From the sequence record MK335533: a stretch of 50,414 nucleotides of DNA; one strand, given 5' to 3'. Positions 1,020-49,743 of the stretch are shown in pieces. The notes under the pieces are model-generated. The model saw only the letters and a program-made list of their open reading frames with translations. It was not told the origin of the DNA and did no database searches. Position numbers and translations under genes: made by a program. Source of the DNA: Shigella phage vB_SsoS_008. The first letter of the stretch is position 1. Every line of letters begins with the position of its first letter.

Positions 1020-1063
1020 ATTATGCCAAATCAAACCGATCGAGTTTTAACAAAAAGTGCTAT
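1020..1063 (-). promoter_or_regulatory. conserved bipartite promoter-like element (ATAGCAC-N3-TTGTTAAAA, 22 bp spacer, CATAAT)
   Basis: Reverse-orientation motif copy with a -10-like hexamer 22 bp downstream on the minus strand. Confidence 0.45.
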
Positions 1064-1716
1064 CCGCGATTGCTTTGAAAAATCCCCTCTCGTGATCAAC
1101 TTAGTTTTGGCAGATTTGCCGCCTAGCTTACTGTGCTGTGCAGAGTACCCGTCAGGTATGCTTACAGGTTTTCTCTCTGGCATGACAAAATCGTCAGAGG
1201 TCCAAAGGCAAGTTTTCTTCGGGTAAGCATCGCGCGGCGCAATATACATCGGGAACCAGGGGTGTGAGTCATTCTCAGGAAGATAGCCGCCATACTCCCA
1301 GGGATTGAAGGAGTGATTTGGTTTTCTCCAGGCAGATGCCCTAGGATGGTTCGGAGAAGCTTACACTGACCAATGTTCGCGGCAATCCTTGCGGTGGCAA
1401 CGGCCTTTTCCTGGAATAACGGATCGCGTTCACGCTTTCTTGCGAAGTGGGCGGCACCGCTAACAGCCAGGTCGGTACACGGCGGGAAGGCCATAATGAA
1501 ATCCGGCTTGCCATACACGCCAGCTATAGCATCACGCTCAAACGCTGCGTCAATGAACACGTTCACATACTCAATGTTCGGATGCTCCACCCGGGCATTG
1601 TACTTTGCATAATTAACCAAGCCGTCAAAGTTGAAGCACATCACCTTGTGACCTTGCTTAGCCAGTTCATGACCAGCAAGACCGGAACCGTCGAATAGCG
1701 ACCAAATCAACTTCAT
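1028..1716 (-). CDS. DNA (cytosine-5)-methyltransferase-like protein, apparent frameshift near 1335
   Basis: N-terminus LFDGSGLAGHEL (motif I, FxGxG-like) and FPPCTDLAVSG (motif IV, PC motif-like); AAGGAG RBS before ATG at 1716; protein-like translation continues in another frame to about 1031. Confidence 0.4.
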
Positions 1717-1872
1717 TTTGCGATCTCCTTTTTGTAGTGATTCAGCTTGTCGATGATTGACTTCGACTTGTTGGCTAGCGCCATGTCAGAGAACAGAGCC
1801 ACGCGATTAACCCACCCACGCGTTGATGTTTGCAATATTCATGTCGATTCCTCTATCTGGTTGATGAGATGA

Positions 1873-1917
1873 ATAATACCCGATCTACCCGGGTGACGTG
1901 TGGCAAAAAATGCTATT
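1873..1917 (-). promoter_or_regulatory. conserved bipartite promoter-like element upstream of the minus-strand methyltransferase cluster
   Basis: AATAGCATTTTTTGCCA, 22 bp spacer containing inverted repeat CCCGGG..CGGG, then TATTAT; followed by RBS and ATG of minus-strand genes. Confidence 0.5.
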
Positions 1918-2099
1918 CCAATAGTTGCTCATTATTCCACCATCAATGGAATATCTGGAATAATTGCGATCCCGATTGATCTCGAATGATGAAATGTGAT
2001 TGTTGCATGGTGTGCAACTGTTGATGTGATTTTGCTAACGATTGGCACAGCGCGCGTGTTACCCGGTTCGCCTGGTGGTCATCTCCATTTTTAGCAAAA

Positions 2100-2460
2100 C
2101 GTGCTATCGATTACTGCTGCTGATAGCAGATATTTGTCTAGATCAATCTAGCCAATACTCGCATCACAATAGACATATAGATATATGTATATATATAATA
2201 TATATAGTGTTTTTTTTATTTATATATATAGATAATCATATTGTAATATGGTGTGTCTTTATGTCTAGCGTACTGTTGGCATATTATGTGCTCATGTTTG
2301 CGCGGGCGGCACAGGAGGGCTATATATTTCTATAGTGACTCTAGACAGCTAGACAAATATTACACGGCTTAAAATTGGCTTGCAGAGAGCACCTAACTAG
2401 CGCGTCACAATGGCAATTGTTGACATGTTATGACATGTTAATCATGGTGTATATTGAAAC
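2100..2460. promoter_or_regulatory. divergent control region: AT-rich tract, inverted repeats, tandem direct repeat; candidate operator or origin region
   Basis: Inverted repeat ATATTTGTCTAG (2129-2140) versus CTAGACAAATAT (about 2349-2360); GCTATC..GATAGC; (TA)n-rich 2160-2260; TGACATGTTA x2 at 2422-2441 with TTGACA; lies between divergently oriented gene blocks. Confidence 0.5.
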
Positions 2461-2481
2461 TAAGGAGAAAGCTTCGAAGCC

Positions 2482-2787: not shown

Positions 2788-3044
2788 CGTTTTGCAAGTA
2801 CGGCAAGGTGGCAAAGGTGAAGGTGACATGAATGACGCCGCAATCACAATGATAACCGTTCGTTCAGATCAGAGGTTCCGGTTAAGAAGCGCCGTAGCCG
2901 GAAAAAAGTTAGCCTGGCAGATTCTGGATTCGTTTGTCCTGATGTTATCAAGCTATCCGATAGCGAGTTAATTTCACCAGCCTCCGGAGATCGTGCGACA
3001 GATGAAATATCATATTGAAAAGTGTGTTCCGTCTAATAGGTGAA

Positions 3045-3088
3045 ATAGCACTTTTTGTTAAAGCCCGGTCGAGCGGATCGGGTATTAT
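3045..3088 (+). promoter_or_regulatory. conserved bipartite promoter-like element
   Basis: ATAGCAC TTT TTGTTA, 22 bp spacer (CCCGG..CGGG inverted repeat), TATTAT. Confidence 0.5.
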
Positions 3089-3335: not shown

Positions 3336-3748
3336 ATGTCATTCTTCGCGTTTGAGCACAAGACCGGATCGCACTGGCATATGTACAGCCACTACACGGT
3401 CATCGATATCAACTCATACCGCGCAAGGATTAACGCTGAAAAGCTAAAGCTCTTCATTGGAGCTATCAAGGTGAACAATGGCTGCGAGTGGGCAGATGAG
3501 CACGCCGAGAAATGTGCAATATTGAGAACCCGGTCTATCTTGAGTCGTTCGATCTTGATGCTGATGTGGCTATTAAGGTGAGAAAGTCGGGTGAGTTGTT
3601 GCCAGGGATGCGTGTGCTGACTGGTTACTCGGGCCGTAAGGTGTGGCGCACCAGCCCAAGATTCGCCAGCGTTCGGCAACATGCTATAGCGTGTTCTTTG
3701 ATGACGGCTGGAATATGGAAATCCCGTGTGAAGTATCTTACCAAATAG
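3336..3748 (+). CDS. hypothetical protein, apparent frameshift near 3520
   Basis: Two overlapping ORFs (3336..3581, 3512..3748) in different frames, both protein-like; AGAGAG RBS before 3336. Confidence 0.35.
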
Positions 3749-3795
3749 CACGAATTGTTAAAACAGGATCGCCATGCGCCCGAGGGGGCTAAAAT
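3745..3795 (+). promoter_or_regulatory. conserved bipartite promoter-like element (longer spacer)
   Basis: ATAGCAC GAA TTGTTAAAAC then TAAAAT about 29 bp downstream; GAGGA RBS and ATG near 3816. Confidence 0.4.
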
Positions 3796-4552
3796 ACCAA
3801 CCAGAGGATTCACCATGTCAATCATCAAAGTGCAACAAGCCATCGACTGAACCAATAATCTTTGCTTTGCCTTCATTTTCACTCGCGACAACAAGCGATT
3901 TGCTGAAAGGGCGGTACCGGCCCAACACAAAACATAAATGGAAAATAACGGAAAGTGGGTGCGCTGCGACAACCTTGCAAACCCGGGAATATGGAATGGC
4001 GAGTTTCAAGGATTCGATGATATCAGCACTTTAATTGAGGAATAAATAATCATGCTTTTTTACGTCCGCCTAAATCCTCCCCCGCGTAAACGGGCACATG
4101 ATCCCGGCAAAATCTACTCACTGCGCGAAAGTAAGTCACACGCTTTATGCCTCGCATCAATGGAACTTCACATTTTCCGACAATTTTTACATGCGCGTGC
4201 CTGGAGACGATCCGCAATCAGTCAATACGAACTCAATCCTCAGCAACAAGATCGAGGTACAGCAATGAACTTCTTCCTTTTAGCTCGCCCGTCTGCCGTC
4301 TGGTTCTTCTGCATAAGTCACGTCATGGTCGGTATCGTGGTAATGCTTCTCCTGTGTGCGGGAGCGTTCGAATGCCACGCATTCTGATTTGCATGATGGC
4401 GGCGGTCGCCCTGAGTATCCTGGTAGTGTCCGGCTGTGGCGAGGTCAAAGATACAATTATGAAACCGGCTTGATTCTTACTACTTTCGTGATGGCGAGCA
4501 ATACGCAGCTACCAATCACAGTTGATTTATTACTTGCGAATAGGATTTAACA

Positions 4553-5515: not shown

Positions 5516-5559
5516 TAAGCACGAATTGTTAAAAGGGGATTCGTCCTGACTGGTACAAT
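5516..5559 (+). promoter_or_regulatory. conserved bipartite promoter-like element
   Basis: AAGCAC GAA TTGTTA, 22 bp spacer, TACAAT. Confidence 0.5.
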
Positions 5560-7718: not shown

Positions 7719-7762
7719 ATAGCACGGGTTGCTAAAACCTATCAAGGGGAATTGTCTATGAT
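7719..7762 (+). promoter_or_regulatory. conserved bipartite promoter-like element
   Basis: ATAGCAC GGG TTGCTA, 22 bp spacer, TATGAT. Confidence 0.45.
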
Positions 7763-9151: not shown

Positions 9152-9719
9152 CATGAAAACAGCTATCATTTTAAACGGCGCTCCTGGAGCAGGCAAGGAC
9201 ACTATCGGATGCATCCTGGCTGACACTTACGACACGTTAGCTTTGCGCAGCTTCAAACACTTGATGTTTGAGTACACGAGCAATCCTGGGTGAGGTGAAC
9301 TACGAGTATTTCATGTTCTTGTATGGGAACCGGCGTGACGTTAAAGAGTTGTATCTCGTGAACGGTAAAAGCCCGCGCCAGTTTATGATCTGGATTAGCG
9401 AGATGCCAGTTAAGCCACAGTTCGGAAATCGCTTCTTCGGCATGCGAGCGGAAAGCAAGGTCAAAGAATCAGTTTTTCGAAAGGTATTTATTATGGTGGA
9501 TCGCCAGATGAGGTATTGCAGATGATTGAAGGTGATATCCAGGTCAAGCTATGCCGAATCCACCGCAAAGGCTGCAACTCCTACAACGACGCTCGTGCGC
9601 CCGTTTACCTGGAAGATATGATCGGGGTTAATGCATATCAGGAGTGCTATTTCTTCTCTCCTTCAGGTCATCCAGAAATTACCGCTCAGCACATAGCCGC
9701 TACTACTGTCAATAAATAG
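9152..9719 (+). CDS. P-loop nucleotide kinase-like protein (dNMP kinase-like), apparent frameshifts
   Basis: N-terminus MKTAIILNGAPGAGKDT (Walker A, resembling phage dNMP kinase N-termini); continues in ORFs 9268..9525 and 9516..9719 in other frames. Confidence 0.45.
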
Positions 9720-9736
9720 CACGAATTGCTAAAACG
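9716..9736 (+). promoter_or_regulatory. conserved promoter-like motif copy
   Basis: ATAGCAC GAA TTGCTAAAAC immediately after the upstream stop codon; -10 ambiguous. Confidence 0.4.
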
Positions 9737-9788: not shown

Positions 9789-10001
9789 GAAATGATGGTA
9801 TCAACTGATAAGTTTTTCACTAATACTAAAACTTCTGAGGTATTCGAACTGGTTCATACTGATAACGGATTCCACATGCATGATAACCTCGACGCATTCA
9901 TCCTCTCGCTTCCAAGCGACTATGATGACCTCGTTTATTACAACCCGGCAGTTAACACTCAGTTTCCGGTCCCGATCGAGACGCGCGGAGAAGAGGCATG
10001 A
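9789..10001 (+). CDS. hypothetical protein
   Basis: GAGAG RBS before ATG (MMVSTDKFF...); C-terminal part of ORF 9726..10001. Confidence 0.35.
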   Translation, partial: EMMVSTDKFFTNTKTSEVFELVHTDNGFHMHDNLDAFILSLPSDYDDLVYYNPAVNTQFPVPIETRGEEA

Positions 10002-11533: not shown

Positions 11534-11555
11534 ATAGCACTAAATGTTAAACAAA
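11534..11555 (+). promoter_or_regulatory. conserved promoter-like motif copy
   Basis: ATAGCAC TAA ATGTTAAAC upstream of RBS and ATG at 11613. Confidence 0.4.
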
Positions 11556-13956: not shown

Positions 13957-15284
13957 ATGAAAATTGTTAAGCATGATGGATATAACGATATCTTTAACGG
14001 CGGCAAACTAAGTTCATCACCTAAGCCATTCTTTGGAAGGTTGTCATATCACGTCGGCTCTTTCTACAACGATAACGCCACAGCAAAGAGGATTGTAGAT
14101 CCTTTACCTGAAGAAATGGTTACGGCTGGATTTATCGCTAAGTGCGTCAAGGATGAAAAAGAGTTCAAATCTCTGTGGGATAGTTACAAAATTGATCCTA
14201 GCTTGGTCCCAAATTGTGATGTTCTTTGCTGGGCGCGCCTATACGGTGGGGCGGCTATTGTAGCAATCATTAAAGACAACAGAATGCTAACCAGTCCAGT
14301 TAAACCTGGAGCTAAACTTGAAGGTGTGCGTGTTTACGATAGGTTCGCAATTACAATCGAAAAAAGAGTAACCAATGCAAGATCGCCTCGCTATGGTGAG
14401 CCTGAGATCTATAAGGTGTCGCCCGGTGACAACATTCAACCTTACTTTTCCATCAATCCACCACACGAGAATTTTCATTGCTGATGGTGAGAGAGTTACC
14501 CCTCAGATGCGGAAGCAGAATCAGGGGTGGGGTGCTTCAGTTTTGAATAAGTCACTGCAATTTGATGCAATCTGCGACTAACGCTATTGCGAATCACTAT
14601 ATGCTCAGATCCTGCGGCGTAAGCAACAGGCGGTATGGAAGGTCAAAGCCGTTGCCGAAATGTGCGATATCGACGATGCTCAGTATGCTGCGCGCCTTTA
14701 CTTTGCTTGACGTGATGACAACTCCGGAGTAGGCCGTGCGATCGGTATGAACATTCGCTGAGACGGAAGAATACGATGTTAGCCGTTCTGATATCAGCGG
14801 AGTGCCTGAGTTCTTATCGAGCAAGATGGATCGTATTGTTTCCCCCTTGATAGGTTTCCGGGATTCATGAGATTATCATCAAAAATAAGAAAAAATAATT
14901 TTAACCAAAACACAGCACTTGAGACTTTCTATAAGCTGGTAGATCGTAAGCACCTCATTTGTTTACAGGCCTCTTCTTGAGTTCTTTGGGCATCCTTGAC
15001 GAGCAAGAATGGTCGATCGAGTTCGAGCCTTTATCCGTTCCGAGCAAGAAAGAGGAATAACCCTTAAGAATAACGTTGATTCGGTTACGAAAGCTATCAC
15101 TGAGCAAATCATCGATCTGGAAGAAGCTCGCGACACGTTGCGATCTATTGCCCCTGAGTTCAAACTCAAGGATGGTAATAACATCAACATTCGCGAACCT
15201 GAAGAAACAACCGAACCGGAACCGGGATTAGGGGAGAAGTTAGAAGATGAAGGTATTAGAGTGCATCTTTCAGAAAGGCGCTAG
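13957..15284 (+). CDS. portal protein, multiple apparent frameshifts
   Basis: GGAGGA RBS before ATG at 13957; portal-like segments LCWARLYGGAAIVAIIKDN and HHTRIFIADGERVTPQMRKQNQGWGASVL; position after terminase; reading frame changes several times between 14440 and 15000. Confidence 0.5.
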
Positions 15285-18500: not shown

Positions 18501-18576
18501 CGCTTTAACAAAAAGTGTGGATATTGAAGCCGTGAACATAATCACGGCTTTTTCGGGTAACTAAGGAGAAGTAATC

Positions 18577-22369: not shown

Positions 22370-22486
22370 ATACCATCCACAGGGGGCTATGTTGCGCCCC
22401 CTTATTCATTTCTGTAAAATCATCCTATCAAGTTTATTCTATTAACTTTTAACAAAAAGTGCCATTAACCAATCAGGAGAAATTCG

Positions 22487-33549: not shown

Positions 33550-33960
33550 TATTGCAATAGCACGATTACAATTTTTTCGTGTAACAGGTGTCTATTTTTG
33601 TAACCGGAACGGGTGTTACAAAATCCACCCCATACGACAGCAGAGGGATATGATAAAAACTCTATATAATATATATAGATAGATAATATTTAATTTTAGC
33701 TTTATATATATAATTATTGTTGTGTAACAGTTGTCTATCGTGTAACTGGTGATTTGATTGATTCGTCAAATTTCTATCATATATGTTCAAAATATAATCA
33801 ATCTGGATTCTATTTGTGGATATCTTTGTATTTCTAAGAAAAAGCGGTTACAAGTATTACACAATAGACAGCGCATAAAAACATACCTAAGCCATTGATT
33901 CCGTTAATTCTGGTTGTAACTTGAGCGATATAGACACGCAATTACACGCCAATTACATGT
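33550..33960. repeat. iteron-like repeat region with AT-rich core; candidate replication origin or operator cluster
   Basis: GTGTAACAGGTGTCTAT (33578), TGTAACC-N8-GTGTTACA palindrome (33599), GTGTAACAGTTGTCTAT (33721), reverse copies near 33856 and 33928, flanking a (TA)n tract at 33661-33720; lies between divergent genes. Confidence 0.5.
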
Positions 33961-38070: not shown

Positions 38071-38113
38071 AGTATAAACTCCTTAGGTAAATAGCACGAA
38101 TTGCTAAGCTCAG

Positions 38114-38150: not shown

Positions 38151-38172
38151 AAAAAACCGCCCGAAGGCGGTT
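38151..38172 (-). terminator. rho-independent terminator (minus strand)
   Basis: Minus-strand reading AACCGCC-TTCG-GGCGG followed by TTTTTTATT. Confidence 0.6.
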
Positions 38173-38662
38173 AGAGTAGGTCACTTGCTGAGAATAACTT
38201 GGCTTGCATTCCTGAACGGTATCCTCCAGGATTCGGGATGATTATTTTTAATTGTCGGTCGTCTGCCATGTATAAGGTATCCTTGTCTGAAGGTTCACAC
38301 GCCACTCTTACTTCTCGATCTCCTTTATACCTGTATGCAACCATTTCGAGATTTTCAGGGGTGAAGCAGGCCCATACTTCTTGCTTTGTGTGAAATGCAA
38401 TATGCTGAGCATCAATCCAATTAGTACATAAGTAGATCGCTTTTTCAGTTTTATTCTTCACGGCAACCGAGCAACTCGTGTATTTCTTCGCGTAAAATGA
38501 CTCCCTTCCTTCCTCATCAATAATCAAAATATTGCAAAACTCGTCATCAAGCCCATCCTCATGCACAAGTTGACACGGGATAGTGTGAAATACGCTCTCC
38601 CCGCCATCGTCGCGACGTTTTACGCCAACGTCGAATGATTCAGTGGGTAGTGATTCAAACAT
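38171..38662 (-). CDS. hypothetical protein
   Basis: Intact 163 aa ORF; start overlaps the upstream gene end. Confidence 0.5.
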   Translation of the reverse strand: MFESLPTESFDVGVKRRDDGGESVFHTIPCQLVHEDGLDDEFCNILIIDEEGRESFYAKKYTSCSVAVKNKTEKAIYLCTNWIDAQHIAFHTKQEVWACFTPENLEMVAYRYKGDREVRVACEPSDKDTLYMADDRQLKIIIPNPGGYRSGMQAKLFSASDLL

Positions 38663-39059
38663 ACTTAATTGGCGTGTTTACGCGTTTCTCTGTACGCTCC
38701 ATAACTTTCATCACCGCCTCATGGTCTGCCATCATGACATTGACACCAGATGTCGGAGTTCGGCGCGCTTTCTTGTTTGCCTTGACGATGTATTCCTGCG
38801 GAACCTTTCCGAGAAATCTTCCCAGGATATTTATGCATTCGCTGTACGGCATACCAGTCAACTTCATCAACCAACCAATCCCAGAGTCGTTACCGCAGGA
38901 GTTGCAGATCGCGCCGCCGTCTCCTGGAGTATTCAGATTGTCAGTCCAGCGAAAGACAACTTTACCTCCACAGTTAGGGCAAGGTTGGTGCTTCTTGTTG
39001 AATACCTTATTAGGCAATCCGCAGACTGACTGAAAAGCCTCACGCCATAACCCCTTCAT
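38655..39059 (-). CDS. zinc-ribbon protein, primase zinc-binding-domain-like
   Basis: CPNCGGKVVFRW...GGAICNSCG pattern resembles the zinc-binding domain of primase-helicases; preceded by a promoter-like element. Confidence 0.5.
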   Translation of the reverse strand: MKGLWREAFQSVCGLPNKVFNKKHQPCPNCGGKVVFRWTDNLNTPGDGGAICNSCGNDSGIGWLMKLTGMPYSECINILGRFLGKVPQEYIVKANKKARRTPTSGVNVMMADHEAVMKVMERTEKRVNTPIKYV

Positions 39060-39140
39060 AAGTTACAAGACGTCCTCTTTCTGAAACATCATAAACTCTT
39101 CGTTCACTTCCAGATCTCCAAATAAAAAACGCGACATAGG

Positions 39141-39185
39141 ATGTTAACCCGCTACGCGTCGATTGTTTTAACTAAAAATGCTATT
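39141..39185 (-). promoter_or_regulatory. conserved bipartite promoter-like element
   Basis: Minus strand: ATAGCATTTTTAGTTA, 22 bp spacer, TAACAT. Confidence 0.5.
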
Positions 39186-39236
39186 GGTCGTTCCGATATC
39201 TTCCTTCTTCCCGACTCGCATAAACTTCTTGTTCGC

Positions 39237-39614
39237 TCATCGCTTCTCAAGGCACTTGCCGTTACCGTCAAACTTCAGGTCGAATCTAAGCCATGCGGCG
39301 CGGAATCCTTTGCAACCCTGTCGGCGGTAAGCACGATGCGCTGCTTCAGCGCCTTGCCATGAAATCATATTGCGATCTTTCCAGCCTTGCACTGTTTGAT
39401 TGCTAACTTTCAAAGCCTTTGCGCAGGCCGCTGGGCCACCGTAATGCTCGATAAGAGCATCCAGCCGCGCTCTCAGTCCTGCGCGCGTTTCTTCTTTATG
39501 AATATAGAATCCGCAGCGCTGTCGAGGCTTTTTGTCTTTACCGCGCCGCGTTCCGTTGTTACCATTATTGTGACGTGCTCCGATTGTACCAGTAGACTCT
39601 GCGATACGTTTCAT
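39237..39614 (-). CDS. HTH DNA-binding protein (Cro/YdaS-like)
   Basis: GGPAACAKALKVSNQTVQGWKDRNMIS resembles the helix-turn-helix of the YdaS/Cro-like family; basic N-terminus. Confidence 0.5.
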   Translation of the reverse strand: MKRIAESTGTIGARHNNGNNGTRRGKDKKPRQRCGFYIHKEETRAGLRARLDALIEHYGGPAACAKALKVSNQTVQGWKDRNMISWQGAEAAHRAYRRQGCKGFRAAWLRFDLKFDGNGKCLEKR

Positions 39615-39635
39615 ATTCTATTCTGGGTTGCCCTG

Positions 39636-39678
39636 TAGCACTTTTTGCTAAAAACGTTTACTGTATGCCGTGTATTAT
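39636..39678 (+). promoter_or_regulatory. conserved bipartite promoter-like element upstream of the helicase
   Basis: TAGCAC TTT TTGCTA, 22 bp spacer, TATTAT. Confidence 0.5.
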
Positions 39679-39716
39679 ATCGTAAACGTTACAACGATTC
39701 AAAGGATTAAATAGCT

Positions 39717-41735
39717 GTGACAATGAACATTAAAAAGCAGATCGCATTACTTGGCGATGACTATATAAAGAGCACTCAAGAGCGATTCACTGTTGGTGAG
39801 GTTGTTCCGTATCCGTACCAGGTTGTTGCTTATGCCGAGATCGCGAAACGCCTATCAAATTACGAGCATCCATTCTTTGTTAAAGCGTCAGTATCTGCGG
39901 GTAAGACCATCATATTCGCTATGGTTGCAAAGCAGTGTCAAAAAATGGGACTGAAAATGCTTGTGCTTGCGCGACAGGGTGAGATTGTCGATCAGGATAG
40001 TGAAGAGATCGACAATTTCGGGGTGACGAACTCCATATTCTCAGCGTCGCTTGGAATCAAGTCCTGCTACTTCCCGATCGTGGTTGGCTCTGAGGGTACT
40101 GTTGCAAATGGTTTAAATAATGAGCTAGCTGATTTCGTACCGCATGTAATTGGGATCGACGAATGTCACCAGGTGGATTGGGAAGACCTTGCGCAAGCCA
40201 TCGAAGGCAAGGAAACGATGGAGCAGATGCGGGGCGAGAAGGGAAAGGTCATTATGGATGGAGATATTCCACTGATTGGTAATGATGGGAAGCCTCTACT
40301 TGGAACTAAGCGAAGCCAATACACGATCGTAATCATGGAAATGATGCGGCGCTGCAAAGAGGTTCACGGTCACGATCTCAGAATATTTGGTATGACTGGA
40401 TCTGAATTTCGGGGTGTAGTTCCTATTCTTGTTGAGAATCCTAAGGAGTTAGGATTCTGGCGTGAGCGAGTAACTGATATAGACACCAACTACCTTATTG
40501 AGTTCGGCTCTGTTGTTCCGACTATATTCGGCTCGACTGACGGAGTTCACTACGATCTGGATAAGTTCAAGGCATCAAGCGAGGACGGCGTACAGGACTT
40601 TACAGAGAAAGACATGAAGGCTATGGAAGATGATGCCCTTCATGATAAATCTCTTACTCAGCGAATCATGCAAATGGTCGCCAAAAAGGCAGAAGAGCGT
40701 AACGCGGTTCTGATTACATGCGCCTGGGAACGCCACTGCAAAGAGGCGGCGGCGGCACTACCGCCGGGAAGTACATATGCAATTATTACTGGCGACACAG
40801 ACACTAAAGCGCGCAAGAAGATTCTTGACGATGTGAGGGCTGGGAAAATTAAATACACCTTTCAGGTCATGGCGCTCACTACTGGTGTTAACGTTCCAAA
40901 TTGGGATTTCAGTGTAATACTTCGCAAGATAGGATCTCTCACTCTGTTGATTCAGCTTTTGGGTAGGGGTATGCGGCTGCTTAAATCCTGGCAGGTTGCT
41001 GAAGGAATGGTTAAGCAGGACCATCTGGTATGGGATTTCGCAGGCACTATGGATGAGTTGGGCCAGCTTTATTTCGATCCGATACTTGAGCAGGCGCAAT
41101 TCCAGAAGCGTTTTGAAAACGGAAAAGACCCGAAAACATGTCCGAAATGCGGTTGCGTAAATAGCTTCTATGCTCGCCGATGCGTTAATGTTATCGACGG
41201 TGAACGTTGCGATTATTTCTGGACTTCTCAGATTTGTGAGGACCAGGTTGACGAGCGAACCGGGAAAATCCTTGTTAAAGGGTGTGGTGCAGAGAATGAC
41301 GTTGTTGCGCGAGTCTGTCGTTGTTGTGATGTTTCGCTTGTCGATCCTAACCTGAAGTTATCAGGTAAGGCGTACACCAAGAATGACTGGTATGAGGTCA
41401 AGAATTTTGAGGTTACGCTAACCAAAAACCAAAATGGCATGATATACAAATACACACTGATTAACGACGATGGTGATGAGTTCAAGGCGTATGAAAAATT
41501 CTTCCCCGAGTCTGACTCTAAGATTTGCGGTACGCTATGGAAAACGAAAGGAGTACTTCCTCATGTGTCAGATCCTAAAATGCGACGCTACTTTATCGGA
41601 ATGAAGAACGCTATCAAGATTTTGCAATACGCACATCATATAGCGCACCCGGTGCGCGTTACTCATCGTCGCAACCAGAAGAAAGAAGATATCATCTCAC
41701 GTAAAGACTTCGGTATGGAGGATATCCCGGAATGA
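39717..41735 (+). CDS. superfamily-2 DNA helicase with C-terminal zinc-ribbon region
   Basis: Intact 672 aa; Walker A SVSAGKT, Walker B IGIDECHQ (DExH); C-terminal Cys clusters CPKCGC...CRCC. Confidence 0.8.
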   Translation: MTMNIKKQIALLGDDYIKSTQERFTVGEVVPYPYQVVAYAEIAKRLSNYEHPFFVKASVSAGKTIIFAMVAKQCQKMGLKMLVLARQGEIVDQDSEEIDNFGVTNSIFSASLGIKSCYFPIVVGSEGTVANGLNNELADFVPHVIGIDECHQVDWEDLAQAIEGKETMEQMRGEKGKVIMDGDIPLIGNDGKPLLGTKRSQYTIVIMEMMRRCKEVHGHDLRIFGMTGSEFRGVVPILVENPKELGFWRERVTDIDTNYLIEFGSVVPTIFGSTDGVHYDLDKFKASSEDGVQDFTEKDMKAMEDDALHDKSLTQRIMQMVAKKAEERNAVLITCAWERHCKEAAAALPPGSTYAIITGDTDTKARKKILDDVRAGKIKYTFQVMALTTGVNVPNWDFSVILRKIGSLTLLIQLLGRGMRLLKSWQVAEGMVKQDHLVWDFAGTMDELGQLYFDPILEQAQFQKRFENGKDPKTCPKCGCVNSFYARRCVNVIDGERCDYFWTSQICEDQVDERTGKILVKGCGAENDVVARVCRCCDVSLVDPNLKLSGKAYTKNDWYEVKNFEVTLTKNQNGMIYKYTLINDDGDEFKAYEKFFPESDSKICGTLWKTKGVLPHVSDPKMRRYFIGMKNAIKILQYAHHIAHPVRVTHRRNQKKEDIISRKDFGMEDIPE

Positions 41736-42148
41736 TTACAGACAAAGGTGATTATTTAGAATTTTACGAGAGAGATCCTAGCGACACGCGAAAGGAGGAC
41801 GCTCATCAAGTTGATTGCGTGTCATGGCTGAAATACAATTTCCCTCACCTTCTATTTTGGCACACTGTCAATGAAGGTGAAAAAACAATCACATCGGCAC
41901 TAAGGGATGAGCAGGCTGGATTACTTAAAGGCGTGTCAGACTTCGTTATCCTGATTGGTGTCAACTCACGATACCCGTTCGCAGCTATAGAACTTAAGCG
42001 GGTTAATAAGTCAGGCAAAGGAAAGGCGTCACCAGTCAGCGATAAGCAAAGGGAGTTTCTCAAAAAGGTTCGGGATCGCGGTGGATTCTCTGCCGTTGCA
42101 TACGGATTTGAGCAATTCAAGCTGGCAATATACGATTTAACGAAATAG
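41732..42148 (+). CDS. VRR-NUC domain nuclease
   Basis: GVSDFVILIG ... AIELK ... QREFLKKVRDRGGFSAVAYG matches the VRR-NUC (PD-(D/E)xK) pattern; start overlaps helicase stop. Confidence 0.7.
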   Translation: MITDKGDYLEFYERDPSDTRKEDAHQVDCVSWLKYNFPHLLFWHTVNEGEKTITSALRDEQAGLLKGVSDFVILIGVNSRYPFAAIELKRVNKSGKGKASPVSDKQREFLKKVRDRGGFSAVAYGFEQFKLAIYDLTK

Positions 42149-42188
42149 CACTTTTTGTTAAAACTGCCGGAATGGAATCTGGCATTAT
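42145..42188 (+). promoter_or_regulatory. conserved bipartite promoter-like element
   Basis: ATAGCAC TTT TTGTTA, 22 bp spacer, CATTAT. Confidence 0.5.
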
Positions 42189-42311
42189 ATTCTCATTGAA
42201 ACGAGAGGATTAAAAATGAAAGACTTCAATGATATAGAAACCATCGACTTTGCAGAGACTGGCTGCTCATTCACTCCGTAAGCAATAGCATCGTACTGTT
42301 ATTATCAGGCA

Positions 42312-42950
42312 TTGAAAACGCCAACCTGTAAAGAGATTTCAGGGCGTCGATACAAGGGAACAAATACGCCGGACGCTGTTCGTGATTTATGGTCAACTCC
42401 ACGCGAGGTTATTGCATACCTTGAGGGGCGTTATGGGAAAGCCAAAGCCAATGTTAACCTCTATGATCTAGACGCTGCGGCAAGCGAAGAAAATAAAGTT
42501 TGCGAGAAGTTTTATTCCCAGGAAACAAACTGCTTAAAACGTTGGTGGGGTAAAAATAAGCACGTATGGTTAAATCCTCCTTATAGTCGACCTGATATAT
42601 TCGTCAAGAAGGCGATTGAGCAAATGGAGCACAACAACCAGATCGATATTCTTTTACCTGCCGATAACTCTACAGCGTGGTTTACTGAGGCTCGACAGCA
42701 CGCGGCTGAAATCATCTGGATTGAAGCTGATTTGACTGAGGATATTGACGGGAACGAGTACGCACGATCCGGTCGCCTGGCGTTCATATCAGGTGAAACT
42801 GGAAAGGCCGTAGATGGTAATAACAAAGGTTCGGTTATTTTCATTATGCGCGAACTGAAAGAGGGTGAGGTTCAACAGACTCACTACATCCCAATCACAA
42901 GCATTTGCCCTTCGGTTAAAAACAAGCGAGCAAAGGTAAGGAAAGTATGA
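42312..42950 (+). CDS. dam: DNA N6-adenine methyltransferase (phage Dam family)
   Basis: DLWSTPREV ... LDAAAS ... HVWLNPPYS: the NPPY catalytic motif and Dam-family N-terminal pattern; no in-frame ATG with RBS, so a non-ATG start or N-terminal fusion is possible. Confidence 0.75.
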   Translation: MKTPTCKEISGRRYKGTNTPDAVRDLWSTPREVIAYLEGRYGKAKANVNLYDLDAAASEENKVCEKFYSQETNCLKRWWGKNKHVWLNPPYSRPDIFVKKAIEQMEHNNQIDILLPADNSTAWFTEARQHAAEIIWIEADLTEDIDGNEYARSGRLAFISGETGKAVDGNNKGSVIFIMRELKEGEVQQTHYIPITSICPSVKNKRAKVRKV

Positions 42951-43198
42951 TGAACGAGAAAATGGTTCCTGTTAAGTTAACTGATCAAGGTTTATGGCTA
43001 CTTTATCGAGCTACGTGCTGCGAAATTATGGAGCGAAACGGATTGACTCAGGATGTTATTGGTTGCGATCTGTGGGAGTTCACTAGTTCTCTTGATATGT
43101 CTTTCGGTGAGATAAAGAATGAACACATCGAGAATTGGCCTTCAATCATTCAGAAAGACGTGGAGGAACTTAAAGCCGACACGATCGTTCAGCACTAA
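42947..43198 (+). CDS. hypothetical protein
   Basis: Intact 83 aa ORF; start overlaps Dam stop (ATGA). Confidence 0.5.
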   Translation: MMNEKMVPVKLTDQGLWLLYRATCCEIMERNGLTQDVIGCDLWEFTSSLDMSFGEIKNEHIENWPSIIQKDVEELKADTIVQH

Positions 43199-43232
43199 TT
43201 GCTAAAACTACCCGGCGAAAGTCGGGTATAGT
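43190..43232 (+). promoter_or_regulatory. conserved bipartite promoter-like element
   Basis: CAGCAC TAA TTGCTA, 22 bp spacer (ACCCGG..CGGGT inverted repeat), TATAGT. Confidence 0.5.
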
Positions 43233-43263
43233 TATTTCATTGGACGAGATGAGGAATCAAAAG

Positions 43264-43473
43264 ATGGCACGCATTAACGCAAACTTTTTCAATATCGCTC
43301 AACAGTCCGCAAAAATGATTGTTCATATCACCAACAAGAAAGGCGGTAACTTTGATTGGGATATTGCTATGAACTTCCTTAAAATGGCTTATTATCGTAG
43401 CTCAGTCAAAGATGTTGAGTGTTTTATCTCTGACGTGGAGAAACTAACCAATGCTGATAAAAAAACAAGGTAA
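43264..43473 (+). CDS. hypothetical protein
   Basis: GAGGAA RBS before ATG (MARINANFF...). Confidence 0.4.
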   Translation: MARINANFFNIAQQSAKMIVHITNKKGGNFDWDIAMNFLKMAYYRSSVKDVECFISDVEKLTNADKKTR

Positions 43474-43955
43474 ACGAGAGGTTTGGGAGCACGCAAAGGA
43501 ATGCGGCATCTCAGACGATATAGCACTAATAGCGAAATATTTCGATATAAAGGATGTTAGCATTATATCAAACGGAAAGATTTCATTTATGGAAGGTATG
43601 CCGAGAAAAATGCAAAGAGTTCCAGCCACCCCGTCACTTGAGTTTTCTCGCGAAGAGGGAAAGAGAATTGAGCGAGAAAGAAAATACGCAAAAAACAACA
43701 AGCCTTCCAGGATTAAATATTAACGCAGAAGGCTACCAGACAATATGGATCTGGAAAAAGCAGGTTAAGCAAATCCCTTTCTCTGACTGGCTACCACCTG
43801 ACTTCGTTAATGTGCTTTGCACTATCGGTATGGAGAATGAGTTGCATATAGGTTATTACTCACCAGGTCGAAACAGCTCCCGGCTTGAGGTTGATGGAAA
43901 ACTCGTTGAGTTTAAATCTTCAGACCTCGGATTCTGGTTAAAGGCTGTGGCATGA
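43451..43955 (+). CDS. hypothetical protein, apparent frameshift near 43680
   Basis: ORFs 43451..43723 and 43554..43955 overlap in different frames; both protein-like. Confidence 0.35.
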
Positions 43956-44033
43956 AACTTTATTTTGCTGTAGTATTAACACCGCTAATTTCATTTTCAG
44001 TAATGTATTTCATTATCATGTGCTATTTAAAAT

Positions 44034-45239
44034 ATGTCACAAGGCAAAATCACTACCGAGCAACTTATTGAAACTCGCATCCTCGGCCTAACACTTCGCG
44101 AGATCGCGGAAAAGTTGCGTCCACACATCCGCGATATTGAAGCGCGTCACGCCAAACTTGCAAAAGAATCCCACTTCCACGGTAACGACAGCACCGCTAA
44201 GAACGTTCCCGAGGGCTTCATGGTGAAAGGCACGTCGACGATGATTGACGCGGATGGGACCGAGAAGATGCGATGGGTTAAGACATCAGTTGATAATGAG
44301 CGCCTTGCTGTTCAATGGAAGCAGCGCGTATTGCATTCTGTGAAGACTTGCCTAAGGCAAAACCAACCGAATCACCTGACTCGCAAGGGCTTAGTTTTGC
44401 TGAAACAAGCTGGCGATCTACCCGGTTTTCGATCTTCACATTGGCGCGCTTGCTCACAAGCATGAGTGCGGCGAGAACTACGACACACGACTAGCGGAAA
44501 AAGTTATGAATGACTTCTTTAATTACGCGATCGATAAGGCCCCCGGGTAAGAGAAGGCTGTTCTGTTAAAAACCGACTTCCTTCACTCAGACTCTTTGAT
44601 GCTAAGACCCCAGCATCAGGTCACGTTCTGGATCTGACAGACGATATGCGAAATTGGTGCATATGGCTATTCGATCGGTGCGACGAGCTATCGACAAAAT
44701 GCTGGAGAAACACAAAGAGGTCGATATCCAGGTTATAAGTGGGAACCACGACCAATCCGGAATGATTTGGCTGAGCGCTGCGCTGGCTGCATTTTATGAA
44801 GATGAGCCGCGAGTTTATAACATGAGGTGTACCCAGATGAGAACGATTATCTCGTAATCTCGCCATACGAACTTTCCTATCTGCTTCATTCGTTGACGTT
44901 AGTCCTGCCGCAATGATGAAGACCCGCTGGGGAAATACCTTTATGGGATACACTCACGGTCATCCGATGCGAAAGGCAGACACGCGACTAAGTGCGATGG
45001 CGACTGATTTCCGCGCAGATTTTGGTGAAAGCAAATACGTGTACACGCATAGCGGACACTGGCACAGCCAGAAGATCACTGAGACAAACCTAGGTATTGA
45101 TGAAGTGCACGGTCAGTTAGGCGCGAAGGATGCATACGCAGCCAATGGCGGTTGGAGCTCTCAGCGCCAAGCGGCGGTAATTGTTTACGATAAGCAATTT
45201 GGGGAAATCGGTCGTTTCATCTATCGTCCAGAAATGTAG
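44034..45239 (+). CDS. metallophosphoesterase-family protein (Ser/Thr phosphatase-like) with N-terminal extension, apparent frameshifts
   Basis: Motifs VFDLHIG, VISGNHD (GNHD/E) and HSGHWH across ORFs 44654..44857 and 44913..45239; the upstream 44034..44465 ORF may be a separate gene or an extension. Confidence 0.45.
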
Positions 45240-45561
45240 TAACCACATCGAAAGCAGAGATGCTATATCATGAAGATAGTCAAGTGCATCCGAAATGACT
45301 CCAAAACACTTCCATTCCGCGTAAATCAGATCTATAGTGTTGGTTATGATTTCGGAGGTGGATTGTTTGAGATTTACGATGGGCGAGGCTCAACAATCAA
45401 GACTCCTCTGAACGGCAGCTACCTGGAATTTATTGAGATAGATTAACAATATCATTCATAACCTTACAGGCTGGCATGATTTACATGCTGGACTTTTTGC
45501 GTTGTGTCAAATATATTTGAGGGTTAAAATCGACTCACTTGTTCAAAAAATATATGGTGAG

Positions 45562-45942
45562 ATTATGAAAGAATTTTTAACTGCTGCTACGTCCAGCACG
45601 GGCGGCGCTTCATTAGTCGGTGCCGCGACTGGTCAACTTTATATTGCTGGCGCTACATTACATATCGGCGTCGCTCAGCGATACGTTGACAAGAAGGTTA
45701 AGGTTGAGCTTCCGGTAACGATGCGCAAACTGCTCTACAGCTTCACTTTCAACGTCGGTACTGGCGCCGCCGGATCTTCTACAATGCTTAAGCTAATCAA
45801 AAGTGTCAAGCACAAGGAAGCGTGCAATCAGTTATGGCGATGGGTATACTACTACAATCCAAAAACCAAAAAGCGCGAAGTGTCGAGAGGGATCAAGAAC
45901 CGACGCGCTGAAGAATACGCGTACGCCGTTAAGGAATTATAA
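45562..45942 (+). CDS. lysozyme-like protein (endolysin candidate; T4 lysozyme-type C-terminal lobe)
   Basis: C-terminal [24 protein letters not shown]...WRWVYY...RRAEEYAYA resembles the C-terminal lobe of phage lysozymes; Gly/Ala-rich weakly hydrophobic N-terminus; catalytic Glu/Asp/Thr region not recognisable. Confidence 0.4.
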
Positions 45943-46344
45943 TGAAACTGGAGAAAACGTGCATTGCGATTGCAGTGGCATCAACGACCGTTTCTCTATC
46001 CGGTTGCTCGACGGCATCTGCTCTGAGCGGTTTACTCGGATCTAAACCGGATGTTACTGCGCAAATTGGCGCTGAGAACACAAAGCAACTAGCGGGAGTT
46101 ACCGCAAAATCCGACGATAAGCGAGAAGTGAAGGTTGAGAATTCCAATATTGGCAAGATTGACTCTTCCTTGAAGAAGTCAATGGAAGTGTCAACCATTC
46201 AGGCTAACACGGTTAACGCTGAAAGCATCACGGCCCACAAAACCGGGGAGCTGGTACGATGCTGTTGTTTGGTGGATTCTCGTTTTTATCATGCTGTTGA
46301 TGATTTATTTTTCTTACCGTAAGAACGGAATTGGGGAGGCTTAG
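45942..46344 (+). CDS. unimolecular spanin-like lipoprotein, apparent frameshift near 46255
   Basis: Lipoprotein signal [22 protein letters not shown] (lipobox LSGC); a C-terminal transmembrane helix VVWWILVFIMLLMIYFSY is read in an adjacent frame just before the stop. Confidence 0.45.
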
Positions 46345-46590: not shown

Positions 46591-46609
46591 GTTTAATTTC
46601 GATGAAACA

Positions 46610-46654
46610 AATATACCCGATACGAGATCGGGTGTTTTAACGGTAAGTGCTATT
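46610..46654 (-). promoter_or_regulatory. conserved bipartite promoter-like element
   Basis: Minus strand: ATAGCAC TTA CCGTTA, about 22 bp spacer (CCGATCTCGTATCGG inverted repeat), TATATT. Confidence 0.45.
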
Positions 46655-47247: not shown

Positions 47248-48741
47248 TCAGCAGGCTATCCCCACTCTCAGATACTTTCTGTTGACCGTTGAACGGCGTA
47301 ACGTTCCGGCACTTTGCAAGAGGTGATGAATAGGAGCGCGCCCTTTATTCTTCTTTGCGATCTCAGTGATAACATCAATCAGCTTCAGAGATTCAGCCTC
47401 ATCACCAGCATACCTTAGGGCGCTGGCAGACGACAGATAAAAATTGGAAAGCTCATTGAAGATCATGACCCTTTCCTGCATCGTTTCAAGGTCAATCTCA
47501 CGGTTGGAACGGTTCGGTGATTCACCCTCCCAATTCTCCGGTTGCTGGAGAACTGAAGCAATACGCAAGGGTAGCTTATCGAACTTTCCGAATCTGCCGC
47601 GAAGCATTGAGTGAGAGTATTTCCCCGTACTGGCGAAATCCGGCTCCATCGCCTGACGCGCAAGGTTTAATTCACGCATAGCATTACGACTTACAGAAAG
47701 AACAACGTTTTCCTCCTTCATAATGTTGTGCACGAGTCTGTAATATTTGCTAACCAGTCCGCGATCTACTTCCTTATACAGTGCATCACCATTTTCATCA
47801 CAAAGAATACGAGTACCTAAAAGAGGTTCCTCACGAACAAATAGGAAACGCTCAGATACGCCGATGCCGCGCTGGCCTGCGTCCATGATACCCTTGATTG
47901 TTTCATCCTGAGCAATAACGCAGATGGAACCGACCGGGCAAAGAGACAAGTTATTGTCCTGGTTTGAACGCGCGACCTCCATATGGTTTTTATCCCACGC
48001 CTTAAGGATAAGCTCACTGTTTGATTTCTTGTCTGAACCCCCATACGTCAGGCCGAGCAATGTATTGATTGCCGTTGCCTCATCAGATATTACGGAAAAG
48101 TGACCTTGAACAGCAGCTACTTTCGCTAGACCTTTGCCAGTAGGATCTGATACCGCGAAAACAATATCAGCCATCTTCTTGATCTTCTCTTCCAGTTTTT
48201 CCTTGTCCTCGTACAGAGCCGCCGTCGTGTTACCCTTCGGGTCGTTTTTGATTTCCTTCTCGACCTGACGTAGCTGACTGGTTAAACGGATAAATTCCTT
48301 TTTTCGCTCTTCATTCAGTCGCTGAATCTCTGCGCGCATAGGCGTAATCGCCGCTGAGTTAATCGCTGATTTGCCTGTTGATGGTGGCTGGCTGATTACC
48401 ATGTAAAGAGCTGTCGGCTGTTCTTCTCCGTGATATTGCACCCAAAACTTCCCGAGCATCGCGGCTGAGATGCAACCAATAAAATGAGCATACGCGGACG
48501 AAACAGGGAACTGTACAGACTCGGCTTTTGCTTTTGCATATTCGAATACCAAGTTATCGCCACCTAACGAAATCAGAGGGAACTTATCGTTTCCGCTGTT
48601 GATATCGATCGGGTCTTGCCAAAAAGAAACTGAATCCCCGTAGCTGTTTTCACGAATTGCGATCGCCACCGGATTAACTCCAGTGCTATTTGCGATCTCA
48701 AATGCCTGTTGGTAATTCAGTTTTGGCTTAATATTAAACAT
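47248..48741 (-). CDS. P-loop NTPase, primase/helicase-like replication protein
   Basis: AAGGAG RBS and ATG at 48741 (MFNIKPKL...); Walker A-like QPPSTGKSAI; about 500 aa; C-terminus may be affected by an indel. Confidence 0.45.
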   Translation of the reverse strand: MFNIKPKLNYQQAFEIANSTGVNPVAIAIRENSYGDSVSFWQDPIDINSGNDKFPLISLGGDNLVFEYAKAKAESVQFPVSSAYAHFIGCISAAMLGKFWVQYHGEEQPTALYMVISQPPSTGKSAINSAAITPMRAEIQRLNEERKKEFIRLTSQLRQVEKEIKNDPKGNTTAALYEDKEKLEEKIKKMADIVFAVSDPTGKGLAKVAAVQGHFSVISDEATAINTLLGLTYGGSDKKSNSELILKAWDKNHMEVARSNQDNNLSLCPVGSICVIAQDETIKGIMDAGQRGIGVSERFLFVREEPLLGTRILCDENGDALYKEVDRGLVSKYYRLVHNIMKEENVVLSVSRNAMRELNLARQAMEPDFASTGKYSHSMLRGRFGKFDKLPLRIASVLQQPENWEGESPNRSNREIDLETMQERVMIFNELSNFYLSSASALRYAGDEAESLKLIDVITEIAKKNKGRAPIHHLLQSAGTLRRSTVNRKYLRVGIAC

Positions 48742-48754
48742 CACAATAAACTCC

Positions 48755-49186
48755 TTAGTTGACGGCGTGAATGATACACCGCCAATGGTACACGCGTTTT
48801 TCAAAAAATGCTATTCGATCAAAGATGTAACCAGCTACGCCACCGAGAGCGCGACCGCTTTCAACCTGGTAACGCTTGCCAACTTTGAATGATTTTTTCA
48901 TTGGGTTGCGATGGTCAAGTCCGGTGCACTTGAGCGTCTTTGTTTTCAACTCGTTGAACTTCGCGAAGAAGATTTCATCAGATCCGACAATATGTAATTC
49001 CACATGCTTTTCAAGTTTTAAATACTTGCCGCATTTTAACTTGAACCGCTGAGTGCCATCCAGACGCTCACGACCTTTGTATAGGTTGTTTACTTCAAAT
49101 CCTGTGATTTTATCTGCGTGAGTGCATTGGGACTGATGGATTTCATCGTCGGTTAACTCCTGAGTAATTATCTTGAATAAGGTCAT
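48755..49186 (-). CDS. hypothetical protein
   Basis: 143 aa ORF; 3' end reads through the downstream promoter-like element, so the true stop may lie earlier. Confidence 0.4.
   Translation of the reverse strand: MTLFKIITQELTDDEIHQSQCTHADKITGFEVNNLYKGRERLDGTQRFKLKCGKYLKLEKHVELHIVGSDEIFFAKFNELKTKTLKCTGLDHRNPMKKSFKVGKRYQVESGRALGGVAGYIFDRIAFFEKRVYHWRCIIHAVN
48771..48815 (-). promoter_or_regulatory. conserved bipartite promoter-like element upstream of the primase-like gene
   Basis: Minus strand: ATAGCATTTTTTGAAA, 22 bp spacer, TATCAT, then AAGGAG RBS and ATG. Confidence 0.5.
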
Positions 49187-49229
49187 TTTATCAAATGACC
49201 TTACGGCAATATTAACAAATCGTGCTATT
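49185..49229 (-). promoter_or_regulatory. conserved bipartite promoter-like element
   Basis: Minus strand: ATAGCAC GAT TTGTTA, 22 bp spacer, TAAAAT; the -10-like hexamer overlaps the annotated ATG of the downstream ORF. Confidence 0.4.
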
Positions 49230-49668
49230 TACCAGGGAATATAATCGTCGTCGTCCTCACTAATATCATCACCGGGTAACTCGAAGTTTGGATCGTATTC
49301 GCTTTCTTAGTCCATATCCATATTCCCGTAAGCGTCGTCAAGTGTAATTTCTTTATATGCAACCTTGATACACCATTCGGCACTAAGCCCGGCATCAAGA
49401 GCGGCAAAATAACGAGTACAGAAATTATCTTGTTCCATTTGGTAACTCCATGAATTAATGTAAATCGAGTTAGCCTCAAGCGTAGCGCGCACATCAGCAT
49501 CTGTTGCATTTATCAGTCGCGAGCCTGGCGTGCTGCCGATAACGTTATTACCGTTCTGAGTCTTAGTTACCGTCATTGAAATAAAACCGGAAGAGCAATC
49601 CATTTTGATAACTATCTTGCCTCGTCAACGCAGGTGCTTGATGATATGAACAACTGCGATGCTCATCT
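49230..49668 (-). CDS. hypothetical protein with acidic C-terminal tail ending DDDDYIPW, apparent frameshifts
   Basis: AAGGA RBS and ATG at 49668; body in ORF 49307..49603; an adjacent frame ends ESEYDPNFELPGDDISEDDDDYIPW at about 49230. Confidence 0.35.
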
Positions 49669-49698
49669 TTAATTCCTTTGTTTGTTTGGATAAAGAGT

Positions 49699-49743
49699 AA
49701 TATACCTTACTCCCTATTTGTTGTCTTTAGCTATTCGTGCTAT
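49699..49743 (-). promoter_or_regulatory. conserved bipartite promoter-like element
   Basis: Minus strand: ATAGCAC GAA TAGCTA, about 22 bp spacer, TATATT. Confidence 0.45.

Follow-up and report, generated by a model that had tools for sequence, protein, structure and literature searches.

A recurrent intergenic element of T1-like phages matches the marbox and has the layout of host class II promoters

The genome of Shigella phage vB_SsoS_008 (sequence record MK335533), analysed here as a window comprising the whole stretch of 50,414 nucleotides (nt), carries between its genes a recurrent bipartite element, ATAGCAC-N3-TTGYTAAAAC, which raises the question of whether such a repeat is a promoter, the binding site of a regulator, or both. 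By megablast with positions 39000-46000 as query, the window corresponds to a T1-like phage of the Drexlerviridae, with Shigella phages phi2457T and Sfin-1 as closest relatives (~90% identity, 99% query coverage); coliphage T1 (AY216660) is collinear with it, with blocks at 66-93% identity, and the matching IMG/VR record is IMGVR_UViG_2974611450_000001. The 2024 re-annotation of phage TLS described a 21-nt direct repeat, aaATAGCACnnnTTGnTAAAA, present in 18 intergenic copies that are co-oriented with transcription and located ~76 nt upstream of start codons; the repeat was also reported in T1, Rtp and Rogue1, with subgroups TTT, GAA and AAA, and its function was listed as an open question for which stoperators, enhancer sites and UP elements were offered (PMC11447400). 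The element of the window belongs to this Drexlerviridae family, as it shares the consensus, the intergenic location, the co-orientation and the distance of ~76 nt to the start codon. The repeat itself is therefore already known, and what appears to be new is its reading as a class II marbox promoter: the match to the marbox, the -10 hexamer at a fixed distance of 18 base pairs (bp) and the associated hairpin are absent from the TLS account (PMC11447400). In this work, we present evidence that the repeats are probably class II promoters dependent on host activators.

The abundance of the element in the window is far above chance, in agreement with an earlier note on this sequence that had counted about 18 copies. 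A scan with the pattern ATAGCACNNNTTGYTAAAAC (ATAGCAC-N3-TTGYTAAAAC), allowing up to 3 mismatches, returned 17 matches against a background of 0.36 +/- 0.59 obtained from 100 shuffles, none of which reached 17. A copy set of 87 boxes was assembled from five genomes (the window, T1, TLS, Rtp and Klebsiella phage KP36), and a weight matrix trained on this set, used with a cut-off of at least 10 bits, found 23 sites in the window and no site in the 49 kb of an unrelated Vibrio phage, a myovirus retrieved through capsid similarity that serves as negative control only, not as non-enteric comparator. The comparison with related phages that had been proposed gave 21 matches in T1 at up to 3 mismatches (0.40 expected), 19 in TLS, 17 in Rtp and 15 in KP36; thus, the box is kept at 15-21 copies in four Drexlerviridae lineages with hosts in E. 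coli, Shigella and Klebsiella, and the multi-copy exact box matches found in IMG/VR lie almost all on contigs of ~41-53 kb. As previously noticed, the element is nearly restricted to the early and replication blocks, the structural module having degenerate or antisense copies only, and its orientation generally follows that of the genes, except at 18502(-), 22446(-) and 38091(+), where the three copies are antisense or odd. Every strong coordinate of the earlier list proved real, but position 33553 holds the ATAGCAC half only and the copy at 18505 scores below 10 bits; copies are present near 48800 and 1901, the former degenerate and the latter weak, whereas the earlier list lacks the strong 2088-2107(-) copy as well as four weak copies, at 43520, 28744, 35091 and 42557. 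Among the 87 copies there are two linked box subtypes, GCAC-TTT-TTGT (n=30) and GCAC-GAA-TTGC (n=22), the mixed forms being rarer (10 and 3), and these may represent two cassette lineages or differing activator preferences.

Aligning the 87 copies revealed a common anatomy that extends well beyond the box. Information amounts to 1.4-2.0 bits at ATAGCAC, TTG and TAAA, and is about zero upstream of the box. A TAnnnT hexamer is found exactly 18 bp past the 20-nt box in 58 of the 87 copies, the runner-up offset being represented by 7, and the copies lacking it mostly display CATAAT, CATTAT or CATACT at the unchanged offset. The most frequent hexamers are TATAGT, TATTAT, TATCAT and TATAAT, and of the 17 strong window boxes, 12 have a -10-like hexamer at 18-19 bp. 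The G located two bases 5' of the hexamer (-14) is conserved (1.0 bit), which fits the TGn of an extended -10, and an A following a c, 7 nt past the hexamer, is likewise conserved (1.1 bits) and is likely the expected transcription start, as predicted from the alignment. With this A numbered as +1, the box spans -50 to -31 and is centred at -40.5, and the position of the -35 reads AAAACN, with 2-3 of 6 matches to the consensus and no recognisable -35 hexamer. A Shine-Dalgarno site and a start codon were found in 70 of the 87 copies, the start codon and the first base of the box being separated by a median of 76 nt (interquartile range 74-78), as anticipated by the claim that a ribosome-binding site and an ATG follow shortly downstream; the leader between the predicted +1 and the start codon is hence ~26 nt and of near-constant length. 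The first bases predicted to be transcribed are conserved as cATCGAAACGAGA, for instance at 42195-42216 and 1013-990 of the window, and the constant leader and start bases could be linked to promoter escape, translation or RNA stability. In at least 6 T1 cases (e.g., 1451-1453, 2270-2272 and 38954-38956), the upstream gene ends with the TAG or TAA of the box, and this use of TAG as a stop codon accounts for the conserved A at box position 3.

The distance of 22 bp between TTGYTA and the hexamer, which had been recognised as non-canonical for sigma-70, is the same dominant offset of 18 bp past the 20-nt box, and it is explained if a marbox-type site replaces the -35, as in class II promoters of MarA, SoxS and Rob; TTGYTA then corresponds to the promoter-proximal half of the marbox and not to a -35. 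TTGYTA taken as a true -35 with a 22-bp spacer was discarded as unworkable for sigma-70, while the marbox fit accounts for the sequence. We also rejected a dimer site of the form TAGCA-N5-TGCTA: the left G is invariant while the right Y varies, and AAAAC is one-sided, so that the two halves are unequally conserved and the box is asymmetric.

The marbox has been published as the consensus 5'-GCAHWWWWTGYYAAA-3' (PMC6900184), as gcannwwntgnnaaa (PMC12052159), and as an A site GCAC with a B site CAAA (PMC9638938), and the phage box fits all three forms position by position, with 1.6-2.0 bits of information at its GCAC, TTG and TAAA. The consensus GCAHWWWWTGYYAAA has 16 matches in the window with at most 1 mismatch, 7 of them perfect, against 1.5 expected. 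In the literature, class II promoters for MarA, SoxS, Rob or RamA have a forward marbox that overlaps the -35 and is centred near -41, with no recognisable -35 and a canonical -10 (PMC10268841). The phage boxes are forward as well, GCAC...AAA reading toward the downstream gene as in micF, and each sequence-level feature of the class is found in them: an asymmetric marbox, forward orientation, a predicted centre at -40.5, 18 bp to the -10 (about 18-19 bp being expected for the class), and no -35. The correspondence with micF of E. coli MG1655 is base for base, the latter having ACAGCACTGAATGTCAAAAC, 18 bp, TAGAAT, and 7 nt to the annotated +1. A matrix built from phage sequences alone scored 15.2 bits at the mar marbox of MG1655 (ATGCCACGTTTTGCTAAATC), 14.8 at micF and 12.4 at a site upstream of rob; these hits are the sole strong ones in their loci, the next best being below 3 bits, with P of ~2e-7 per random 20-mer. 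The rob-locus site, AAAACACTGAATGCTAAAAC, lies at 1079-1098(-) of MG1655 locus L004, with the rob start codon ~70-90 nt downstream; we take it to be a known marbox, which agrees with rob being reportedly controlled by members of its own regulator family. For nfo and inaA, the best matrix hit is directed toward the gene and stands exactly 18 bp before TATCAT and TATAGT, respectively, and fumC carries ATGGCACGAAAGACCAAACA; these three genes, which we take to have class II promoters, support the geometry only, since their hits are individually weak.

Another shared trait of the copies is a potential hairpin between box and start, in line with the inverted repeat that the earlier note had seen in the spacer. 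For the 42 nt past the box, the folding z averages -2.2 to -2.3, compared with -0.09 when windows are drawn at random from the same genomes (Mann-Whitney p = 5e-20). The stem sequences vary among copies and two layouts recur, one in which the stem flanks or includes the -10, and another in which the spacer is taken up by a GC hairpin, with a T-rich -10 after it; the latter was flagged by a terminator scan at 43209-43228, 46615-46633, 42165-42184 and 1878-1894, and the T1 annotation has terminators marked at comparable places. No single hairpin register was found, as the commonest (i+j = 35) occurs in only 11-15 of the 87 copies, and an Rfam search matched no family. Since the predicted start lies downstream of the 5' arm, only read-through RNA from upstream, or DNA, can form the hairpin. 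The sense-strand fold is more stable than the antisense one in 45 of 51 structured copies, with 68 against 34 G-U pairs, and this asymmetry favours an RNA hairpin over a DNA cruciform. The hairpin would probably terminate the upstream transcript or protect and stabilise its 3' end.

Regarding the protein that reads the box, no homologue of MarA, SoxS or Rob was detected in any frame of the window or of T1 (best E-value 0.12) using six-frame phmmer and hmmsearch with a three-sequence profile and filters off, and the helix-turn-helix (HTH) candidates of the phage had a Cro/C2-type match or nothing, with no HTH_18 domain, in sequence searches of Pfam, PHROGs and PDB. The outermost early genes on both arms are preceded by boxes, and therefore the reader must be present at DNA entry. 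Rob is constitutive and abundant, which makes it the likeliest reader in unstressed cells. Canonical -35/-10 promoters were not enriched in the early regions over shuffled sequence (21 vs 22.1 expected, and 23 vs 22.0), and only three canonical promoters were reported in the TLS paper (PMC11447400).

From the observed sequence, geometry and conservation of the copies, together with the lack of a detectable MarA-family homologue in the phage, we infer protein binding, activator dependence, start sites and a role for the hairpin, as follows. Judged by its sequence, the element is both of the things originally proposed, namely a putative regulator box and an early/middle promoter, with the box fused to a -10 at fixed spacing. 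Each copy would constitute a compact promoter cassette of ~76 nt, in which the 20-nt box acts as an asymmetric, near-consensus marbox/soxbox/robbox (GCAC A site, 7 A/T-rich bp, YAAA B site) bound by one monomer of the host AraC/XylS-type proteins MarA, SoxS or Rob, or RamA in Klebsiella. The box, directed toward the gene, would cover ~-50 to -31 in place of the -35, with a sigma-70 -10, often with TGn, 18 bp further on; the activator would recruit sigma-70 RNA polymerase as at micF, through sigma region 4 and the alpha C-terminal domain, and transcription would start at the conserved cA, followed by the ~26-nt leader with its Shine-Dalgarno site. In unstressed cells constitutive Rob is the most plausible activator, and under stress MarA or SoxS (RamA in Klebsiella) may add further input. 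As no phage protein would be needed, the arrangement would suit early and DNA-metabolism genes. The units may also be interleaved: the TAG or TAA of the box often closes the upstream gene, the spacer, -10 and discriminator form the variable hairpin, and the upstream message would end or be protected at this hairpin, whose 3' edge would mark the beginning of the next unit. The broader proposal that T1-like phages tie nearly all of their early and DNA-metabolism transcription to the host stress activators MarA, SoxS and Rob (and RamA) is a tentative one, which we regard as possible but on balance doubtful.

Several observations weigh against the reading of the repeats as host-activator-dependent class II promoters. 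Every start site is a prediction. The phage boxes are far more uniform and nearer to the consensus than the host sites (18-34 bits vs -8 to 15), and such uniformity could point to a more specific factor. Five of the 17 strong boxes in the window, 2088(-), 3745(+), 9716(+), 11534(+) and 38091(+), lack a -10 at 18 bp, hence not every copy is a promoter; the T1 orthologues of 3745(+) and 9716(+) do have a good -10, while its absence is conserved at 2088(-), 38091(+) and 11534(+), the last at the terS start, and these three may be candidate binding sites with another role. The TG extension of many copies could render the promoters partly independent of the activator. The excess of G-U pairs on the sense strand is owed partly to the conserved T-rich -10 and TG motif, so that the strand asymmetry gives the RNA hairpin over the cruciform no more than a tentative preference. 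Finally, classical resistance to T1 maps to fhuA and tonB and is not known to map to rob, marA or soxS, although mutants in a single activator would escape notice given redundancy among the three.

Among the rival explanations, we consider it unlikely that the box is bound by a phage protein not detectably related to AraC/XylS, such as a Cro/C2-like HTH protein or a small early protein, which would activate or time the promoters as T4 MotA does at middle promoters. The uniformity of the phage boxes relative to host marboxes, the conserved Cro/C2-like regulator gene in the replication block and the many small early open reading frames (ORFs) without known function are in accord with this idea; against it stand the position-by-position marbox match with a spacing equal to that of micF, nfo and inaA, an asymmetric box ill-suited to a dimeric Cro-type protein, and the boxes of the earliest genes on both arms, whose reader is needed already at DNA entry, while the additional conserved A at box position 3 is accounted for by the TAG stop codon. 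It seems less probable still that the copies are activator-independent extended -10 promoters, with the box serving mainly as a recombination or shuffling cassette similar to the T4-type promoter-early stem-loops (PeSL), as a sink titrating host regulators, or as a UP-like element. The G at -14 and the frequent TG, a uniform 76-nt cassette beside small variable ORFs, two linked box subtypes that suggest spread by duplication, and the strong boxes without a -10 would all agree with it; yet conservation is focused on the marbox contact positions instead of being spread over the cassette, in lineages whose major capsid proteins are only ~50% identical, and the exact 18-bp phasing is what an activator contacting the polymerase requires. 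UP elements, moreover, are A/T-rich tracts at -40 to -60 that lie next to a -35, have no GCAC core and are bound by the alpha C-terminal domain; a UP element was rejected for this box, which has an invariant GCAC, extends to -31 and is not accompanied by a -35.

Stoperator-like sites, at which a repressor on the box blocks elongating polymerase as in mycobacteriophage L5, and which in the L5 type occur within transcription units irrespective of promoter position and are served by a cognate phage repressor, were raised for the TLS repeats (PMC11447400), and the many asymmetric sites co-oriented with transcription, as well as the few copies without a -10, recall them; given that most copies have a -10 at the fixed 18-bp distance, that this virulent phage has only a Cro/C2-like HTH protein and no L5-type repressor, and that the box equals an activator site, we deem this explanation very improbable. 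A sigma-54 -24/-12 promoter has practically no chance of being correct: TAGCAC-N3-TTGC is only loosely similar to TGGCAC-N5-TTGC, as had been remarked from the outset, and even if the copy at 22446 does have TGGCAC, every copy has N3 in place of N5, a spacing too short by 2 bp, AG stands for GG in all but one, and a sigma-70-type -10 follows at a constant distance of 18 bp; no enhancer-binding protein came to light, no search aimed at such proteins having been made.

Compared with known systems, the phage cassettes are most similar to the host class II promoters (micF, inaA, nfo, fumC and lpxC P2), which also have a 20-bp box of GCAC, 7 A/T-rich bp and YAAA, in forward orientation, replacing the -35, centred near -41 and 18 bp from the -10. 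They differ in belonging to a virulent phage with 15-24 copies per 50 kb, in being much nearer to the consensus, in a box that doubles as the upstream stop codon, and in the hairpin between box and +1. T4 middle promoters use a MotA box at -30 together with AsiA, both activator and co-activator being phage-encoded; they resemble the cassettes in having an activator box instead of a -35, a sigma-70 -10 and a temporal gene class, but their box is centred at -30 and has another sequence, whereas here a host-regulator site is present and no phage activator is detectable. The T4-type PeSL cassettes, which consist of plain sigma-70 early promoters plus a stem-loop, are likewise short repeated units placed between small variable early ORFs. 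With sigma-54 -24/-12 promoters the element has in common a GCAC...TTGC-like core, but it has N3 instead of N5, no GG and a sigma-70 -10. The GenBank annotation of T1 does not mark the sites as a promoter class, and within the searchable library no article was found that connects T1-like phages to the marbox or to MarA, SoxS or Rob, nor any that maps the transcription starts of these phages.

T1-like phages, a classic model, frequently contaminate laboratories and are candidates for phage therapy, and the class II marbox reading makes the open question of the repeat function experimentally simple. If this reading holds, a virulent phage would rely on the regulators of intrinsic antibiotic resistance in enterobacteria. 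Such reliance would matter for the combined use of phages and antibiotics, for phage growth under the bile-rich conditions of the gut, in which Rob becomes active, and for designing promoter cassettes that are compact, strong and responsive to regulators. Under the broader and more doubtful proposal that nearly all early and DNA-metabolism transcription is tied to these activators, the speed and yield of infection would track the bile, oxidative or antibiotic stress state of the host, and the ~20 near-consensus boxes of each genome, their number rising as the phage replicates, would titrate these regulators and alter the intrinsic drug resistance of the host during infection.

Turning to the individual copies of the window, the leftmost box, ATAGCACTTTTTGTTAAAAC, at 1044..1063(-) scores 33.7 bits and is followed by CATAAT (1020-1025) with a preceding TG and a predicted +1 at ~1013 (tcAtcgaaacgaga). 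The weak box ATAGCATTTTTTGCCACACG at 1897..1916(-) scores 13.5 bits and has TATTAT at 18 bp and a predicted +1 at ~1866; the terminator-like hairpin at 1878-1894 precedes the TATTAT, and a 184-aa ORF (1162-1716(-)) lies downstream. The strong box at 2088..2107(-) (32 bits; T1 orthologue at 101(-)), which has no -10 at 18 bp, is probably a candidate binding site only; it lies beside the point of divergence of the genome, and just to its right there is a divergent pair of near-consensus sigma-70 promoters, 2170-2199(+) with 11/12 matches and 2240-2267(-) with 10/12, possibly immediate-early promoters where leftward and rightward transcription split.

In the rightward early region, the box at 3045..3064(+) has TATTAT at 3083-3088 and a predicted +1 at ~3095 (ccAtcgacacg), and the perfect box at 3745..3764(+) has a disrupted -10 region, its T1 orthologue (1450+) having TATAGT at 18 bp. 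For TAAGCACGAATTGTTAAAAG at 5516..5535(+) (T1 2830+), TACAAT at 5554-5559 is preceded by TG and the predicted +1 is ~5566. TATGAT (7757-7762) of the box at 7719..7738(+) (T1 4344+) is located within the hairpin AGGGGAAT...ATTCCCCT, with a predicted +1 at ~7769. Another perfect box, at 9716..9735(+), shows a degenerate -10, TGAGGT (TATAGT at T1 6531+), a long hairpin with z of -3.2, and an ATG at 9792, and the degenerate box at 11534..11553(+) (T1 8362+), without a -10, overlaps the start of the small terminase gene.

Within the structural module, a weak antisense box below 10 bits at 18502..18521(-) is conserved in T1 at 15067(-), and the antisense box of the tail module at 22446..22465(-) has TAGGAT with TG at 18 bp and a T1 orthologue at 18831(-). 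Boxes antisense to capsid and tail genes are thus conserved between phages, including one in TLS at 15023(-), and early antisense transcripts opposing the late genes may start from them. The box at 38091..38110(+) (T1 34902+, Rtp 33762+), which lacks a -10, is antisense to the flanking genes and adjoins a bidirectional terminator at 38155-38172.

In the replication block, the box at 39165..39184(-) is located at the end of the Cro/C2-like regulator gene, with the primase gene downstream and TAACAT (39141-39146) in the loop of a terminator-type hairpin. The box at 39635..39654(+) has TATTAT at 39673-39678, a predicted +1 at ~39685 and the helicase GTG at 39717. A canonical sigma-70 promoter for the regulator gene, TTGAAT-17-TATAAT, is found at 39674-39702(-), and its -10 is shared with that of the helicase box on the opposite strand; the two promoters stand back-to-back inside a CGTTTAC...GTAAACG inverted repeat, and this overlap could act as a direction switch. 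Downstream of the perfect box at 42145..42164(+) there are a GC hairpin at 42165-42184, CATTAT at 42183-42188, a predicted +1 at ~42195 (tcAttgaaacgaga) and the dam ATG at 42217, and the box at 43189..43208(+) is similarly followed by a terminator-like hairpin (43209-43228), TATAGT (43227-43232), a predicted +1 at ~43239 and an ATG at 43264. The weak box at 43520..43539(+) (15.7 bits; T1 40308+) has TAGCAT at 18 bp.

On the right arm, the box at 46634..46653(-) has a hairpin at 46615-46633, TATATT at 46610-46615 and a predicted +1 at ~46603 (tcAtcgaaatt). The degenerate box ATAGCATTTTTTGAAAAACG at 48795..48814(-) (14.4 bits; T1 46139(-)), with TATCAT at 18 bp, has the DUF3987 ATPase gene downstream. 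TAAAAT (49185-49190) of the box at 49209..49228(-) lies in the hairpin GTAAGGTCATTT...AAATGACCTTAT (z -4.7), with a predicted +1 at ~49178, and the last box, at 49724..49743(-), has TATATT after a 19-bp spacer within a hairpin (z -4.5) and a predicted +1 at ~49692.

Many genes of the window are broken relative to T1, which makes its ORF-based gene calls unreliable and suggests assembly indel errors or gene decay. Examples are dam (42217), which ends after ~22 codons with the ORF picking up again at 42312; the primase gene (38171-39059), divided into ORFs of 163 and 134 aa; and a small early ORF at 3816-3851, which has a stop after 11 codons.

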